A stretch of 64,000 nucleotides of DNA from an uncultured delta proteobacterium (lineage in GTDB: Bacteria > Desulfobacterota > Binatia > UBA9968), in NCBI GenBank assembly GCA_963737905.1, contig CAVTUQ010000004.1, positions 128,001 to 192,000 on the forward strand. The letters are read 5' to 3'. Under the pieces are notes generated by a model. It did no database searches. It had not been told where the DNA came from and saw nothing but the letters and a program-made list of their open reading frames with translations. The translations under genes were made by a program, and so were the position numbers. Of this stretch, positions 37,583-44,261 are shown piece after piece. Each line of letters begins with the position of its first letter. The stretch's first letter is position 1.

Positions 37583-38359
37583 CTAGACAGGGTGGTTGTT
37601 GATAGGCCGGTAAGGTGAGGCCGCCTCTAAGTGATCGCCGAGTTCCGTATAGAATTCGCTCGAACAGGGCTTAAAATTCTCCGGCCAATTGGCCGTTAAC
37701 GTGCACAACAATCGTAACTGAATCGGTGCGTCAGTATTCACTCGCTTCACGCGTACCTGAACTGCGTCTGGATCATTTTCCAAGATTTCGAGAAAATCTC
37801 GCGAAATATATCTTGGACAATAGCCTACGATGGTCGCAGGATCATCTGTTCGGATCGCAATCGCACAACCATCATAACGGTTCTGAGGGTCTGGCATGAG
37901 ATATAACCTCTGCCCAACATGGAGTTTACTAATCCTGACCCGTGCTTCGTCCGGTAGATGCCGAACACCATGACTAAAGAAATGAACTACATATTTACCC
38001 TCCGGGTCTCGCTCCGGGCACGGAAATACCGTTAAAGAATCTGTTTCTCGAACTCCTTCTGTACGACCTAGCAATACGAGCGGGTCTGCTTCATCTTCCC
38101 GCAAATCAAGCCAGCGCAAAAAATCCCTATACTCTGGCCTTTTCTTTGAAATGAGACGATTCGCGAACAGGGGTAATAATTCGTGGGATTTGTACACAGC
38201 ATGCAAATCCTGCATAAACCCAAACGGAATGAAGTTTTTGGAAAGCTTCGCACCCTTCGTATAAACGAACCGATAAACGCCATTCTCGGAGCTCAGTTTT
38301 CCTACCGGAAACCATTGCCGAGACTGCGGGTCTTGCCAAGCTAAATACAAGACTTTCAC
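37583..38359 (-). CDS. HIRAN domain protein
   Basis: N-terminal LYLAWQDP..R.W.PVG.L/FANR segment; C-terminal L.PDPQN.YD..AI....VGY.PRY HIRAN motif. Confidence 0.8.
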   Translation of the reverse strand: MKVLYLAWQDPQSRQWFPVGKLSSENGVYRFVYTKGAKLSKNFIPFGFMQDLHAVYKSHELLPLFANRLISKKRPEYRDFLRWLDLREDEADPLVLLGRTEGVRETDSLTVFPCPERDPEGKYVVHFFSHGVRHLPDEARVRISKLHVGQRLYLMPDPQNRYDGCAIAIRTDDPATIVGYCPRYISRDFLEILENDPDAVQVRVKRVNTDAPIQLRLLCTLTANWPENFKPCSSEFYTELGDHLEAASPYRPINNHPV

Positions 38360-38360
38360 C

Positions 38361-39275
38361 TTACACCTCCAGCTTCAGAAGGCGTCGTTGGTTTAATTCG
38401 AGCATCTTCATAGCAAACTCCCTACCGGCGTCTGAGATTCGACCGGGTGGAACCTGGGCAAATATACCGTCAATCGCATTCTCTGAGATTTGCGCTAGCC
38501 GGTCAAGCCACGCCCTCGCTGCTGATCCCCTCAGTCTTGCTGCTTCCCTAAAAACAGCCAATGTTGGCATGGGTTTACTACTTGCGGGCGAGCTGAAGAA
38601 TGCAGAAAGAGGCTTTTCAATATACCAATCCATACCCCTCCGACGATCTTTTGTCGAGAGTCTTTGCAGTCTTGTTGCGTCTGTCTCGTTCCATCCTAAG
38701 CTCGATGCGTGATCGAACGTTGGCGCCAGATGTATGCTTCGATCCGAGCTAACTACAAAACCCCAATTCTCATGATGGCGGTCCTGATTTGCAATCCAGG
38801 CATCCAACATCAAATAGCCAACAAAAACATCGACTGCCGACCGAACATTACCGAACGTATTCCAATTAAGCGGCGGCTGAACGCCATCCTGTTTAACGAT
38901 TGTCAAGACCAATCTGACCGTATGTTGGCTCACCCGATAAAACTTCTCTTTGGGATAGCTCTTATCTAGGCGCACTAAGACCTCATTCCCGGCTACTAAC
39001 CTTCCACCAGAAGGGACAAAAATGCGAGACACAACCCCATGTTGACCTTTCCATGTCGCAAACTCATACTCCGCGTGGGGTAGCCCGAGAAGTTCGCAGA
39101 GTTCACTGACAACCTTCTCGCTCCAGTCTTCGCCTGTTGCGCTTTCACCTTCGCTTCTATTCAGCTTGAACAGATATCTATTGGAATGCTCATCGCTAAA
39201 CCAAAACTTGGGTTTGGTCCCAAGCTGTTCTAACATGTCTCCAGCCTCATCCGGAACTACAATGACGGGATACAT
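38361..39275 (-). CDS. HipA-like Ser/Thr kinase
   Basis: LGTKPKFW, YLFK, GEDWSEK, catalytic loop DAWIANQDRHHENWG, LAPTFDHASSL. Confidence 0.87.
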   Translation of the reverse strand: MYPVIVVPDEAGDMLEQLGTKPKFWFSDEHSNRYLFKLNRSEGESATGEDWSEKVVSELCELLGLPHAEYEFATWKGQHGVVSRIFVPSGGRLVAGNEVLVRLDKSYPKEKFYRVSQHTVRLVLTIVKQDGVQPPLNWNTFGNVRSAVDVFVGYLMLDAWIANQDRHHENWGFVVSSDRSIHLAPTFDHASSLGWNETDATRLQRLSTKDRRRGMDWYIEKPLSAFFSSPASSKPMPTLAVFREAARLRGSAARAWLDRLAQISENAIDGIFAQVPPGRISDAGREFAMKMLELNQRRLLKLEV

Positions 39276-39326
39276 TAGGGTTTAGGACGTAAGTGAATGG
39301 GCTCTCTTCAGCTCTCGTCGTCGCAT

Positions 39327-39640
39327 TTATCTCATTCGATCGTTACACCAATAAATGTCTCGTGCCTTTACCTTCAATTCCTCGGACCGATCACGCCAAT
39401 CGGGTAGCGACCGGTCAAGAATTTTCCAAAACTCGTCTCCATGATGACGCTCGAGCAAATGCGCTAACTCGTGCGCTATCACGTAATCAGCGATCACGCA
39501 CCGGCAGCTGCAACAGCTTCCAATTGAAATAGACCACACGGTTCTTGCCACAAGATCCCCACCGATACCCAAGATCACGGACCTCAACTCGTGCCGCTGC
39601 AACCCTAGTTTGCGGCTTAATAAACTTACCCGCTCAAGAC
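39327..39640 (-). pseudogene. 5'-truncated, frameshifted YgjP/DUF45 (SprT-like) zinc metalloprotease
   Basis: Across frames: VRDLGYRWGSC...FNWKLLQLP | DYVIAHELAHL.E.HH...FW....PDW; the N-terminal half is absent. Confidence 0.75.
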
Positions 39641-39753
39641 AGCTTCGGTTATATTTGCCTTTCTTTACTACAGCTCGTCGTCCAGCCTCATCGCCGAGCC
39701 GAAAAGGATAATTTTCTCGGGCTTGGCGACTTCTACAATTCGCCGCCCAGGCA

Positions 39754-40455
39754 TCATGTCTGAAGCTTTTTGAGCACCTCGAGCGATCGCGCCCAGGCAG
39801 GATGCGCGGCAGATTCCATATAGCCGCGGCCAGGCGTCATGGTCATGAAACCATGGCCCGCGCCCGGGTACACGTACACCTTCGCATCCGGGAGGCGGGT
39901 GAACGCCGCTTGGATACGCTCGATCGCGGCCATCGGTGCGACCTGATCCCGGTCTCCGTAATGGAAGGAAAGCGGGCAGCGTACCTTGTCTACCTCGTCG
40001 AGGTGCTTTTCGACGTGTGATCCGTGGAAGGAGATTCCGGCATCAGTGCCATAGCGCGCCGCCGCCAAAAGCGCGAAGGGGCCGCCGAAGCAAAACCCCA
40101 TCACGGCAACTTTGCCGTTGCAGCGGGGATGCTTCTTGAGATCGGCGATTACATCAGCGAGATCTTTCATACCCAGCTCAAGGTCGTATCGGTCGTTCCG
40201 AGCGAAGGCGCGCTTGCGGCCGTCTTCGTTCCAGACCAGCGGGCCCGGGTCCGCATCGCGCCAGAACATATCGGGAGCGGACGTAACAAATCCCTCGGCG
40301 GCGAGTGCGTCGGCGTAATAGATCATGTCGCTGTCAACACCGGAAATGGTTGACACGATGATCACGCCCGCTCCCTTGCCGGACTCGGGCGAAGCCACGT
40401 AGGAGTCAAACCTGCCGCCGTCGGCAGCAGCAATCGTAATATGGGTCCCCGCCAT
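39754..40455 (-). CDS. Dienelactone hydrolase family protein
   Basis: GFCFGG nucleophile motif, D..AP, YPGAGHGF. Confidence 0.92.
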   Translation of the reverse strand: MAGTHITIAAADGGRFDSYVASPESGKGAGVIIVSTISGVDSDMIYYADALAAEGFVTSAPDMFWRDADPGPLVWNEDGRKRAFARNDRYDLELGMKDLADVIADLKKHPRCNGKVAVMGFCFGGPFALLAAARYGTDAGISFHGSHVEKHLDEVDKVRCPLSFHYGDRDQVAPMAAIERIQAAFTRLPDAKVYVYPGAGHGFMTMTPGRGYMESAAHPAWARSLEVLKKLQT

Positions 40456-40622
40456 TGCTATTTCCTTTCATGCAATTTTTCATCTTCGGTGAGAGTATCG
40501 GATAACTGGGCGATACGTCAACGTTTCGATTGAAACCCTTGTGTTCGGCATCGGACTGAACTAGCGTCGACATGATTGTTGATGCTCAACGGTATCAAAC
40601 TCGCGATTGCTGATAGACGGAC

Positions 40623-41726
40623 ATGATCACCGCTCATGCCGACGTGATTGGCAGCCTGCTCAGACCACCGAATTTGCTTGCGAGTCAAAAGCAACTCGCC
40701 GCTAGAACCATCACCGCTGCTGAATTCAAAGCGATCGAAGATCGCGCGGTCGATGACGCTATCGCGTTGCAGGAAGATGTGGGCTTGGACATCGTCACCG
40801 ATGGTGAGATGCGGAGGCAGTCGTTTCAGAGCCAGATGACCGCCGCCGTGAGCGGGTTCGGTGAATTTAATCTTGATGCCTTCCTATGGGGTGAATGGTA
40901 CGACGAACAGGGAGTAAAGAAAACCCGTCGGCCTCGCCGGCTCGGGGCGGTCGGCAAGCTGAAACGAATTCGTTACCTCTCGGCGGAGGAAGTTTCTTAT
41001 CTCAAGAGCAGAACGAATCGAATTCCCAAAGTGACAGTTCCAAGCCCCAGCCTGTGGGCTAACTTTTGGTCGCCGAGTTATTCAAGAGACGCTTATCCAA
41101 CGCTTGATGCGTTTCTGGGTGACATCGTTAACATTCTGCGCGAGGAAGTTGCCGAGCTGGTTCGCCTAGGAGCGAGCTACATTCAAATCGACGCGCCACA
41201 CTACGGACTCTTGCTTGATCCCAAAACGAGGGGCTTTTATGAGAGGCGGGGTTGGAGCCTCGATCAATGGCTGAGTCAGGGGATCGAGCTGGACAACGCG
41301 ATCATAGATGGTTTTTCCAATGTGACTTTCGGATTTCATGTCTGACGCGGCAACCAGGGCAGCCGGTGGCTGTCTCAAGGAGGTTATGAATCGATCAGCC
41401 GGGAGCTTTTTCGTAGGCTAAAGGCGCAAAGACTGTTGCTGGAATACGACGATCCTCGCTCCGGCTCCTTTGAGCCACTCAGAGACGTGCCCGGGGACAA
41501 GTTTGTGATTCTAGGACTCATCACGACAAAGCGGCCGGGGCTTGAACCCATCGAGCTATTGCAGCGGCGAATCACGGAAGCCAGTCGGCATGTTCCGCTG
41601 GAACGACTTGGCCTCAGTCCCCAGTGTGGTTTCGCCTCTTCGATCATTGGCAACAATATTTCTCTTGAAGATCAGCGAAGAAAATTGGAGCTTGTCGTTA
41701 GGACTGCCGAAACTGTGTGGGGTTGA
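40623..41726 (+). CDS. Cobalamin-independent methionine synthase-like (single-barrel MetE family) selenoprotein, 367 aa, predicted Sec241
   Basis: GSLLRP, TDGEMRR, YIQIDAP, then FGFHV-TGA(41343-41345)-RGNQGSRWLSQGGYE...LEYDD.R.G.F...LSPQCGF, in frame with ORF 41436..41726. H-x-C-RGN is the zinc-binding motif. Confidence 0.88.
41357..41375 (+). promoter_or_regulatory. Candidate bacterial SECIS hairpin
   Basis: GGGCAGCC[GGU]GGCUGUCU; the loop G follows a 19-nt spacer after the UGA. Confidence 0.7.
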
Positions 41727-41734
41727 AAAAGTTT

Positions 41735-42487
41735 TCAGGCGGCCTGGGTCAGCGCTCGCCAGACGAGCGTCACTCCGATGACGAATAATAGGACCAACAG
41801 GCTACGATTGAAAGTTTGCTGGTTCACGCGGTCTTGGATTTTGAGACCGCCGTAAAATCCTAGCAGCACGAACAAAGTCACTTCTAGAGATAGGGAGAGA
41901 GTGGACCAGTTAAAAAGATTCCAGGTCGATACCGCAACCAACTGGCTTAACTTGGTGATAATAAAAATCGTCGCGATGGTCTTGATGAATTCTCGCTTCT
42001 GCAACTTGAGGTTATAGAGATAGATCGCTAATGCGGGTCCGGCGGCATTGGTCATACCATTGAGGAAGCCGCTGACAAACCCGACAGGTAGCGCAAGCAT
42101 TTTCTCGAGCCGCGGCGAGATCTCAATCTTAAATTGGAGCCAATTTGAAACGATAAAAACCAGCACCATCACGCCCAAACAGAAATTAAGAATCCAGAGC
42201 GGTAGAGTGACCAGAACCTTTGTTCCTACGAAAACGCCGATAATCGTCACCAACAAAAACCAGGGGAAACGACGCACCACCTCAAAGGGAAACCCACCGC
42301 GAAAGATCTGCGTGATATCCATTACGAGATTGGGAAGAATCAGGATGGTGATGGCGGTCCGAATGTCCAGCAGGAGTGCCACAGTCGGCGTACCGATTAA
42401 CGGGAAGCCCATCCCCGTGGCACCCTTGACCAAGGCAGCAAACAGGAGCGCTAGACCTACGAGAATCGTAGACAGATCGAGAGGCAT
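41735..42487 (-). CDS. TauE/SafE family sulfite exporter-like membrane protein
   Basis: About 8 TM segments, KG.TG.GF and G...G....GP motifs. Confidence 0.85.
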   Translation of the reverse strand: MPLDLSTILVGLALLFAALVKGATGMGFPLIGTPTVALLLDIRTAITILILPNLVMDITQIFRGGFPFEVVRRFPWFLLVTIIGVFVGTKVLVTLPLWILNFCLGVMVLVFIVSNWLQFKIEISPRLEKMLALPVGFVSGFLNGMTNAAGPALAIYLYNLKLQKREFIKTIATIFIITKLSQLVAVSTWNLFNWSTLSLSLEVTLFVLLGFYGGLKIQDRVNQQTFNRSLLVLLFVIGVTLVWRALTQAA

Positions 42488-42524
42488 TTTACGCAACAGG
42501 CCGTAGCGGAGAGTTCCAGCTTTG

Positions 42525-44120
42525 CTAAGGCTTCCTCCGCTGTCCCGTCTGCTTCTCGCCGGTTACAAAATAATCACCTTTCACCGCCAGCTCTGCTTCC
42601 TCTTCATCCTCCTGTGTCCACGCGCCGAGACTGTAGCCGTGCCACGGCATCCGCGGTTTAAGCGCCGGGAGTCCCAATTCTTCCCAAATCGCTTTGGATC
42701 TCTCCATGAACTCCCTTTTAGGGAGGGAAACCGGCGTGTAAGGCCATGGGCGCACGGCATTGATCAACAACGCTCCGATGGATGCCATCCGGACATCGAG
42801 ACTTTCCATTCCAGGAGGATGCGACGATGGGTCGAGTCCGGGCGGTTTTCCTTTGGCGATAAAAATATCTTCCTCCGGTCTCACATTGAAACAGATCGCC
42901 CAGTTAACCATCGCCGGATCATGGATATCGATGTCCTCGTCGACGGCAATACAGACCTTCGCGTAGGCTCCCGTGAAGCCCGCCGACGCATTCAATGCTC
43001 TCCACGCGTCGGCCTTTGTGGCGTTGCGCATCTTGATGACGCAGTACGCCTGTCCACTACCGCTGACCTCGTCGTGCAAAGCAACGTCTAAGACCGCCGC
43101 GTTGCCGCTATCGTGGCGCAAGAATTTATAGATGATCTTTTCTGTCCCGGTGTGTTTGATTTTGCTACTTTCGCTGGGGGGAAACTGGCTCATCAGAGCC
43201 GTGTAAATAGCGTCCTTGCGGTGCGTAATGCAGGTCACCTGCAGATACGGAGACATCGTCCGGTGGCCCATGTATCCCGGATATTCGCCGAATGGCCCTT
43301 CGGGCTCAATGGAATCCGTCGGAATAATTCCTTCTATGATTATTTCCGCTGTCGCCGGAACAAGCAGGTCGATGGTCTTGCAAGGCACCACGGGCACGGC
43401 TTCTCCTGCTAATCCGCCGGCGAGCCGGTATTCGTCAAAATCGTACGGTATCTTTGCGGTAGCCGAGTATGCGATGTTCGGAGTGACGCCGATGGCAATG
43501 GCTGCCTCGAGCGGCACGCCCATGGTTTTGCATTTGCGCCAGTGCAACCCCATGTGTTGAGAAGTAAAAAATCCACCGGCGCGGTCCGGCGCCTTTATCT
43601 GGCTGCGATAGTTGCCGATATTGTATACGCCGGTTTCCGGATCCTTAGTGATCCAATTGGCCGAAGTGAGATACGGTGCGTTATCGAAACCCGGAGTCGA
43701 GATCGGAACTGGAATCATATCGAGGCCGTGACCGTTGAGTAAATCTTTGCTCTGCCATACGACTTCCTGAGCCGGACCCGATTCAACTACTACCGGATCT
43801 ACAGGGTGCAGCTGCGCTTGCGTCCAGCGCTCGTGGATTTCATCCGGTTCGCACATCATCCCGATCGCGTATATCTCAGTGGTGGCTGCCAAGGTGCCGA
43901 CGGTTACCGGCATCGGGTATTTTTTCCCTTTCGCGTCGATGACGTTCTCAAACAAGAACGCCTTACGTTGACCCTCATCGAGACCGCGAAACTGCCAACG
44001 CACCAGGGGCATTAGTTCCGTATCTTTGTTGATCTCTCGCTCGATTCTGATTAGCTTTCCGCGCTCCTCCAGTGCCTTTACATGCTCGCGAAAATCTCGG
44101 TAATATTTTTTATTCGCCAT
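42525..44120 (-). CDS. UbiD family (prFMN) decarboxylase
   Basis: N.GNYR, EIIIEG, EGPFGEY.GY, VDEDID. Confidence 0.9.
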   Translation of the reverse strand: MANKKYYRDFREHVKALEERGKLIRIEREINKDTELMPLVRWQFRGLDEGQRKAFLFENVIDAKGKKYPMPVTVGTLAATTEIYAIGMMCEPDEIHERWTQAQLHPVDPVVVESGPAQEVVWQSKDLLNGHGLDMIPVPISTPGFDNAPYLTSANWITKDPETGVYNIGNYRSQIKAPDRAGGFFTSQHMGLHWRKCKTMGVPLEAAIAIGVTPNIAYSATAKIPYDFDEYRLAGGLAGEAVPVVPCKTIDLLVPATAEIIIEGIIPTDSIEPEGPFGEYPGYMGHRTMSPYLQVTCITHRKDAIYTALMSQFPPSESSKIKHTGTEKIIYKFLRHDSGNAAVLDVALHDEVSGSGQAYCVIKMRNATKADAWRALNASAGFTGAYAKVCIAVDEDIDIHDPAMVNWAICFNVRPEEDIFIAKGKPPGLDPSSHPPGMESLDVRMASIGALLINAVRPWPYTPVSLPKREFMERSKAIWEELGLPALKPRMPWHGYSLGAWTQEDEEEAELAVKGDYFVTGEKQTGQRRKP

Positions 44121-44261
44121 CGCTCTCTCCGGTGATAAAGTTCTCCTCCCATCTATCATCTGCGATGTCCTACTTGTCAAGCAAACAGTTGACAATGACG
44201 ATGACCTGACCTAACTCTTGAGGCAGTAATTTGCCGCAGCATAGATTAAAGTCATTAGACC

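Follow-up and report, generated by a model that had tools for sequence, protein, structure and literature searches.

Does the in-frame TGA in a gene resembling the methionine synthase gene metE encode selenocysteine (Sec), and would the selenium then sit on a catalytic zinc? The question is raised by positions 40623 to 41726 of a 64,000-nucleotide (nt) stretch of contig CAVTUQ010000004.1 (positions 128,001 to 192,000; assembly GCA_963737905.1) from an uncultured bacterium of the Binatia lineage. We refer to this whole stretch as the window. An original prediction, made from the letters of the window, had described the gene as that of a MetE-like enzyme with a TGA at the position of a zinc-binding Cys. 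We put the probability at roughly 85% that the gene encodes a single Sec-containing protein of 367 amino acids (aa), a MetE-like zinc enzyme whose reaction is, slightly more likely than not, the methylation of homocysteine.

The reading frame begins with ATG at 40623 and runs for 240 codons to an in-frame TGA at 41343-41345 (codon 241), the sole internal stop. Beyond this TGA, the frame stays open for another 126 sense codons and ends in a second TGA (41724-41726). Re-reading the coordinates confirmed the earlier description of a TGA at the Cys of an HxC motif, followed by 126 further sense codons that include the Glu of LEYD and the Cys of PQCGF. With TGA translated as Sec (U), the motifs F-H-V-U-R-G-N, L-L-E-Y-D, and P-Q-C-G-F appear in a product of 367 aa. 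Genetic code table 11 splits the frame into a 240-aa open reading frame (ORF; 40623..41345) and a 96-aa ORF with its earliest start at TTG 41436. The parts of the gene are listed here; A2 denotes an alignment of 11 sequences, and SECIS stands for Sec insertion sequence.

40623..41726, + strand: complete coding sequence, including the stop codon, of a predicted 367-aa single-domain MetE-like selenoprotein (Pfam, PDB, AlphaFold, and Foldseek matches)
41337..41339, + strand: codon of His239, predicted first zinc ligand, in H-x-U (invariant in A2; aligns with the His of HAHMC in Thermotoga maritima MetE)
41343..41345, + strand: in-frame TGA, predicted Sec241, at the position of a zinc-ligand Cys (TGA/TGY column; profile alignment)
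41354..41380, + strand: SECIS-like stem-loop (RNAalifold consensus of 30 orthologs)
41442..41444, + strand: codon of Glu274 in L-L-E-Y-D, predicted third zinc ligand (invariant in A2)
41625..41627, + strand: codon of Cys335 in P-Q-C-G-F, predicted fourth zinc ligand (invariant in A2; profile alignment)
41724..41726, + strand: terminal TGA, the true stop of the MetE-like gene (orthologs end at the equivalent place, with TGA or other stops)

Because the terminal TGA of the gene acts as a stop, TGA has not been reassigned throughout this genome.

Orthologs were sought in 60 relatives as well as in the genome of the window itself. All 33 rows of at least 63% identity that span the column of codon 241 had exactly one TGA each. 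The TGA-form gene was present in 28 of 36 genomes of the window's family, in 3 of 5 genomes of a second family, and in none of the 19 genomes of a third. Every full-length ortholog (30 of 30) had TGA at the identical column, in the motif H-[VIL]-U-R-G-N, a result that is independent of two unpublished records (G012 and G006). For a wider sample, we took the best 80 loci, with one genome per GTDB species. At these loci, the column held TGA in 39 cases and a Cys codon in 41 (TGC in 32 and TGT in 9); carriers of TGA beyond Binatia belonged to Methylomirabilota/NC10, Tectomicrobia, Acidobacteriota, Anaerolineae, and other groups. Hence, the division between TGA and TGY falls at exactly the column named in the original prediction, and other assemblies have the TGA too.

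After removal of 13 duplicates from 110 loci, we built a quick maximum-likelihood tree from the remaining 97 distinct orthologs (56 Sec forms and 41 Cys forms). At least 6 changes between Sec and Cys were needed on this tree, 2 of them forced by well-supported (starred) branches, compared with an average of 31 changes when the Sec/Cys labels were shuffled. One Cys form (L076) is nested within the Binatia Sec clade. Cys and Sec versions thus appear, from the sequences, to have replaced one another several times inside one orthologous family.

We also compared the coding sequence on the two sides of the TGA, using all 435 pairs of the 30 orthologs. The proportions of nonsynonymous (pN) and synonymous (pS) differences were 0.18 and 0.73 before the TGA (240 codons; pN/pS, 0.24) and 0.21 and 0.74 after it (126 codons; pN/pS, 0.28). 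Purifying selection is equal on both sides of the TGA, with synonymous sites saturated; the downstream part is not under relaxed selection, which had been named beforehand as part of what would refute the prediction.

The prototype for Sec insertion in bacteria is fdhF of Escherichia coli, in which the UGA is followed, ~11 nt on, by a stem-loop with apical G and U, and decoding depends on selA, selB, selC, and selD. The window gene has a similar arrangement. A core stem formed by 41357-41364 (GGGCAGCC) and 41368-41375 (GGCUGUCU) begins 11 nt past the TGA and closes an apical loop, GGU, at 41365-41367; outer pairs join 41354-41355 to 41379-41380. The spacing and the G/U loop match the fdhF type, whereas the hairpin of the window is short (7 to 8 pairs, with a 3-nt loop) and lies in codons for a peptide that the Cys orthologs share; the likeness is one of these features.

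The hairpin that had been noticed after the UGA is both present and conserved among orthologs. RNAalifold, applied to 48 nt from the TGA in the 30 orthologs, gave as its consensus the same stem with the GGU loop and two outer pairs. In this consensus structure, 92.4% of cells were paired, compared with 31 to 69% in slid-partner controls. Pair 18:30 showed compensatory change at synonymous sites of Gly246 and Leu250: C-G was replaced twice by G-C and once by A-U. The mean hairpin energy was -12.3 kcal/mol for the 56 Sec forms and -8.4 kcal/mol for 40 Cys forms (one row containing N was omitted from the Cys set). The codon of Arg248, which forms the loop, was CGG in 49 Sec forms and CGT in 7, placing G or U at the loop base in 56 of 56; in the Cys forms it was CGC in 23, CGG in 8, CGT in 7, and CGA in 2, placing G or U there in only 15 of 40. 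An alternative single-sequence fold that includes the UGA was rejected for lack of conservation (76.7% paired, not above shuffles). We infer that a peptide that already encodes half a hairpin made repeated conversion of Cys to Sec easy.

The machinery for Sec insertion is encoded in the same genome. The selD, selB, and selA genes lie together on another contig, outside the window (C29:71024-75438), and this selD itself has one in-frame TGA, so it likely encodes a selenoprotein too. Each of the five near-complete relatives with the Sec form has a tRNA-Sec (95 nt; anticodon TCA; 74 to 77 bits against a cut-off of 47). Taking these lines of evidence together, we consider the insertion of Sec at UGA 241 to be very probable.

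What kind of enzyme would carry this residue? The protein matched the MetE catalytic domain of Pfam (PF01717, Meth_synt_2) at 61.3 bits (cut-off, 21; E, 1.3e-16). Its closest solved relative is a 375-aa Listeria protein (1YPX; E, 5.9e-47 across residues 5 to 367), and in this alignment the TGA pairs with the Cys of M-H-I-C-R-G-N. The model for full-length MetE, TIGR01371, was matched only at positions 431 to 601 of 754 (41.7 bits; cut-off, 929.95); since the N-terminal barrel is absent, the protein is not a full-length MetE. None of the NCBIfam matches was to a selenoprotein-specific model. An AlphaFold model based on an input alignment of 11 sequences had a mean predicted local distance difference test score of 87.8. 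The top Foldseek match of this model was T. maritima MetE (1t7l; E, 2.2e-19; query template modeling score, 0.76; ~18% identity), followed by 1YPX and further MetE entries. The nearest family consists of Cys proteins of 64 to 80% identity that bear the NCBI name "cobalamin-independent methionine synthase II family protein"; two of the Cys type, from metagenomes, share 80% and 75% identity with the window protein. The Cys orthologs are uninterrupted and share the stretch H-x-C-R-G-N-Q-G-S-R-W-L.

The genome of the window also codes for three uninterrupted Cys paralogs of the single-domain MetE-like type, at 41 to 43% identity (C7:41049-42173, C21:74944-76041, and C37:99215-100357), and for five more distant relatives, so the Sec form is one of several copies. 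In two of the relatives, Cys-type paralogs of 42% identity (G015:C157:8775-9899 and G010:C663:8232-9314) have a single internal stop each, one TGA and one TAG; the TGA could mark another Sec form or a pseudogene.

The placement of codon 241 within the zinc site rests on family profile alignments. In these, the stretch "...glhlC" falls on "...HAHMC", which ends at residue 652 of T. maritima chain 1t7l_A, and "sPqCGfas" falls on "NPDCGLKT" of T. maritima and Candida albicans MetE, making Cys335 the equivalent of Cys704. The numbering of the T. maritima chain is offset by 32, as read from three points (Ser443, Glu494, and Cys652 are native Ser411, Glu462, and Cys620). With this offset, the alignment to Cys652 places the TGA on T. 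maritima MetE Cys620. The zinc ligands of T. maritima MetE are His618, Cys620, Glu642, and Cys704 (PMC539065), and the equivalents in E. coli MetE are H641, C643, E665, and C726 (PMC7857596). In A2, H239, the U/C column, E274, and C335 are all invariant. Glu274 would correspond to MetE Glu642/Glu665, as judged from motif order rather than from residue-by-residue alignment. The original prediction had put the TGA at the zinc-ligand Cys of the MetE family, and profile alignment to solved structures agrees with it. We conclude that Sec241 is probably a zinc ligand.

The residues that would hold the substrate are also conserved. S11, E62, and D190 are invariant in A2 and align with MetE Ser411, Glu462, and the Asp of QIDEP, which bind the amino-acid part of homocysteine (PMC7857596, PMC539065). 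Because these three residues are invariant, the thiol is likely homocysteine or a close analogue. The substrate had been left unnamed in the original prediction; the thiol is now narrowed in this way. Methylation of homocysteine is, on balance, the reaction that we favor slightly. In Lactobacillus, yxjH is under the control of a methionine T-box and is cotranscribed with luxS (PMC6004538), which fits a role in converting homocysteine to methionine.

In the mechanism that we propose, SelB and Sec-tRNA(Sec) would decode UGA 241 as Sec, steered by the intragenic stem-loop 11 nt downstream, as its conservation suggests. The product would fold into a single (beta-alpha)8 barrel resembling the catalytic C-terminal half of MetE. 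By homology, the catalytic zinc would be held by His239, Sec241, Glu274, and Cys335, and an amino-acid thiol, most likely L-homocysteine, would be held by Ser11, Glu62, and Asp190. If the enzyme behaves as MetE does, the substrate thiol would displace Glu274 and bind the zinc as a thiolate, and the zinc-bound thiolate would be methylated to yield methionine; in MetE, the Glu leaves the zinc upon binding of the substrate thiolate and Cys620 stays fixed (PMC539065). Sec would then be a spectator ligand, and the softer, electron-richer selenolate should raise the nucleophilicity of the zinc-bound thiolate. Sec could also ease re-reduction of an oxidized site by forming a selenenylsulfide with Cys335 instead of a Cys-Cys disulfide. 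Such oxidation has been described for Cys enzymes: crystals of T. maritima MetE contained a Cys620-Cys704 disulfide and had lost the zinc (PMC539065), and both MetE (at its active-site Cys) and YxjG of Bacillus subtilis were S-bacillithiolated under hypochlorite stress (PMC4360819). The two roles of Sec, in nucleophilicity and in protection from oxidation, may both apply, as the ideas are not exclusive.

The protein can be compared with several known systems. It has the same length as the Cys-type cobalamin-independent methionine synthase II family (1YPX, YxjG/YxjH) and likewise one barrel, but it has Sec at the first zinc-ligand Cys, its gene has the SECIS-like hairpin, and it scores below both NCBIfam cut-offs of that family. 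With MetE (T. maritima 1T7L/1XDJ; E. coli), it shares the catalytic barrel, the His/Cys/Glu/Cys zinc set, and the Ser/Glu/Asp set for homocysteine; it differs in its length (367 versus ~750 aa), in lacking the N-terminal folate barrel, and in having Sec at the Cys620/Cys643 position. Given the absence of the folate barrel and the ~18% identity, methyltetrahydrofolate polyglutamate is unlikely to bind as it does in MetE. Single MetE-like barrels that use methyl donors other than methylfolate are known as the core methionine synthases MesA to MesD (Price et al. 2021); methylcobalamin serves them as donor in vitro, a part probably taken by corrinoid proteins in vivo, or, for MesD, the route is oxygen-dependent (PMC7857596). 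The window protein resembles them in having a single barrel with conserved zinc and homocysteine residues. The match to MesD (3RPD) was distant only (E, 3.1e-6 with the single sequence and 1.3e-16 with the profile), and none of MesA to MesD is reported with Sec in the available excerpts of that paper (PMC7857596). As far as the sequence can tell, the protein is a "core" MetE-like barrel with intact zinc and homocysteine sites and without the folate-binding N-terminal barrel.

Sec serves as a metal ligand in formate dehydrogenase (Mo/W) and in [NiFeSe] hydrogenase, and, to our knowledge, almost every bacterial selenoprotein known so far either catalyzes a redox reaction or holds a redox metal. 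In the window protein, Sec would likewise replace a Cys ligand, but the enzyme would transfer alkyl groups and its metal, zinc, would be redox-inert. If true, Sec on zinc in a thiol-alkylating enzyme extends the known uses of selenium. SaoB and SaoC are further predicted metal-binding selenoproteins (PMC13188914). The portions available of the same 2026 review, which has a table of 119 prokaryotic families, contain no MetE-like or PF01717 selenoprotein (PMC13188914). Likewise, the available text of deep-Sep (PMC12013277) and of BSepDB (PMC13326102) has no entry for methionine synthase or homocysteine, and PF01717 is also absent from the latter. Our literature search thus returned no MetE-like selenoprotein; a listing in supplements, in Haft & Tolstoy 2025, or in Deng et al. 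2026 is possible. The sequences point to a real and widespread family with Sec and Cys members, apparently uncatalogued, whose Sec residue would be a ligand of a non-redox zinc.

Several observations weigh against the reading of the gene as that of a Sec-containing MetE-like enzyme. The hairpin of the window, folded alone, was no better than shuffles (84 nt; z, +0.29), and for a 43-nt stretch (z, -1.0) the minimum was an alternative fold. Covariation is confined to one pair. The hairpin is partly dictated by the peptide Q-G-S-R-W-L, which the Cys orthologs also encode, and these orthologs retain a weaker stem (mean of 4.65 contiguous pairs, versus 6.45 in Sec forms). The codon statistics that compare Sec with Cys forms ignore shared ancestry, though the label changed at least 6 times. 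The tRNA-Sec was not found in the window assembly with Rfam RF01852, ARAGORN (default and relaxed thresholds), a motif scan, or blastn with selC of the relatives, nor when the 19 kb surrounding selABD were scanned with Rfam. The best RF01852 match in the assembly (46.6 bits; cut-off, 47) is a tRNA-Leu, and 13 low-threshold "SeC" calls by ARAGORN were rejected as not tRNA-like. The assembly is 87.5% complete and in 46 contigs, and we take the missing tRNA-Sec to be a matter of this incompleteness. The top NCBIfam models, PRK06520 (234.6 bits; cut-off, 313) and PRK06233 (209.2 bits; cut-off, 576), were both under their cut-offs. PRK06520 and PRK06233 represent single-domain "vitamin-B12-independent methionine synthase" groups (the YxjG/YxjH, 1YPX type); by these scores, the window protein appears to belong to a subfamily separate from both. 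Finally, both flanking genes run on the opposite strand and leave the gene isolated, and neighbors are of little help in the Binatia lineage.

Of the other explanations, the one that survives best holds that Sec is not only a zinc ligand: it could be a nucleophile that carries a methyl group on Se, it could form a redox switch with Cys335, or the substrate could be a seleno-compound. The disulfide and zinc loss in T. maritima MetE (PMC539065) and the S-thiolation of YxjG and MetE in B. subtilis (PMC4360819) speak for a redox role, and the placement of the gene in some lineages speaks for a link to selenium metabolism. In the Methylomirabilota/Tectomicrobia clade, every row is a Sec form. At loci L093, L114, L117, L121, L125, and L129, egtD lies upstream and an EgtB-like gene lies downstream, on the same strand and with gaps of 18 to 81 nt; L106 has egtD upstream only. 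Two of these blocks span L114:2936-8760 and L121:2835-8728. An NCBIfam scan of two loci identified the product of the upstream gene as EgtD (381 and 372 bits; cut-off, 291), whereas that of the downstream gene scored as the selenoneine synthase SenA (515 and 534 bits; cut-off, 420) and was under the EgtB cut-off. The downstream gene is followed in both by a gene for a ProV/OsmF betaine-type ATP-binding cassette transporter. In five genomes with the egtD-gene-senA operon, the best match to TIGR04348, which we take to be the selenosugar synthase SenB, reached 83 to 107 bits against a cut-off of 300.

This operon placement offers a handle on the reaction of the enzyme family. In part of the family, the enzyme might add a methyl group to, or remove one from, an intermediate of selenoneine metabolism (a selenol or a histidine-betaine), or Sec might act as a methyl relay, rather than the enzyme just producing methionine; we regard this as unlikely. 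The window genome has no SenA above the cut-off and no EgtD, so the selenoneine link is lineage-specific and does not define the family. In addition, the four zinc-ligand positions and the homocysteine-binding positions are kept, as a plain ligand swap predicts, and the Cys and Sec forms are interchangeable on the tree. An additional role for Sec of any of these kinds therefore seems improbable to us.

A suppressor or near-cognate tRNA might also read the UGA without selenium, as Cys, Trp, or some other standard amino acid; Cys does occupy the column in 41 of 80 related loci. Such a reading leaves unexplained the full selABD set with a Sec-type selD, the canonical tRNA-Sec (anticodon TCA) of the relatives, and a hairpin whose loop is constrained to G/U in the TGA forms only, and it is at odds with the terminal TGA of the gene, which works as a stop. 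We consider it very unlikely.

Still less survives of the idea of a truly split gene, in which the TGA is a real stop and the 240-aa piece and a separately started C-terminal piece form one barrel. TTG 41436 does open an in-frame ORF of 96 aa. However, the 30 codons from the TGA to this TTG (R-G-N-Q-G-S-R-W-L...) are among the best conserved yet would be untranslated. The stop is TGA in 56 of 56 forms and never TAA or TAG, and the Cys forms are uninterrupted; a split gene is extremely improbable.

That the TGA is a nonsense mutation or sequencing error in a recent pseudogene, as the frame split under table 11 and the missing tRNA-Sec of the assembly might suggest, has next to no chance of being right. 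Across several phyla, 56 distinct orthologous sequences share this TGA, and its conservation, along with that of the codons beyond it (pN/pS, 0.28, like the 0.24 upstream), refutes the idea.

Reading the gene as a Sec form of a MetE-like enzyme has consequences beyond this locus. The repeated swaps of Sec and Cys among proteins of 64 to 80% identity would be a natural experiment on how a selenolate tunes the reactivity of a zinc-thiolate or its resistance to oxidation. Annotation reports such genes as a pair of fragments or as pseudogenes. Binatia, Methylomirabilota, and other uncultured lineages of soil and groundwater commonly have the family, so both the selenoproteomes of these lineages and their metabolism of methionine and methyl groups would be under-counted.

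The gene is flanked in the window by the following genes.

39754..40455, - strand: dienelactone hydrolase gene, divergent upstream neighbor
41735..42496, - strand: gene for a TauE/SafE membrane protein, convergent downstream neighbor

A scan for promoters and terminators found nothing above shuffles, and an Rfam scan of 39000-43000 found no riboswitch or other RNA family at an E of 10 or less. We surveyed the nearest ORFs of at least 110 aa on either side of 97 distinct loci (174 ORFs). A convergent TauE/SafE gene was the nearest downstream ORF in 22 Sec loci of the Binatia type and lay upstream in one Cys locus; its convergent orientation provides no argument for an operon. A gene of the isochorismatase family was often found upstream in Sec loci of the Binatia type.

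At two Chloroflexota loci (L107:5140-6723 and L131:2581-3774), the neighbor is a gene for a RACo-type corrinoid reductive activase, beside a Cys form, or for a URO-D/MtaA-family protein, beside a Sec form. These neighbors hint that some family members may draw methyl groups from corrinoid systems.

Farther from the gene, an ORF for a protein similar to kinases with a HipA C-terminal domain (304 aa; 38361-39275, - strand) lies directly upstream of an ORF with a HIRAN domain (258 aa; 37583-38359, - strand). The two could be a toxin-antitoxin-like or defense pair. On the other side, a gene for a UbiD-family decarboxylase (556 aa; 42525-44195, - strand) adjoins the TauE/SafE gene.

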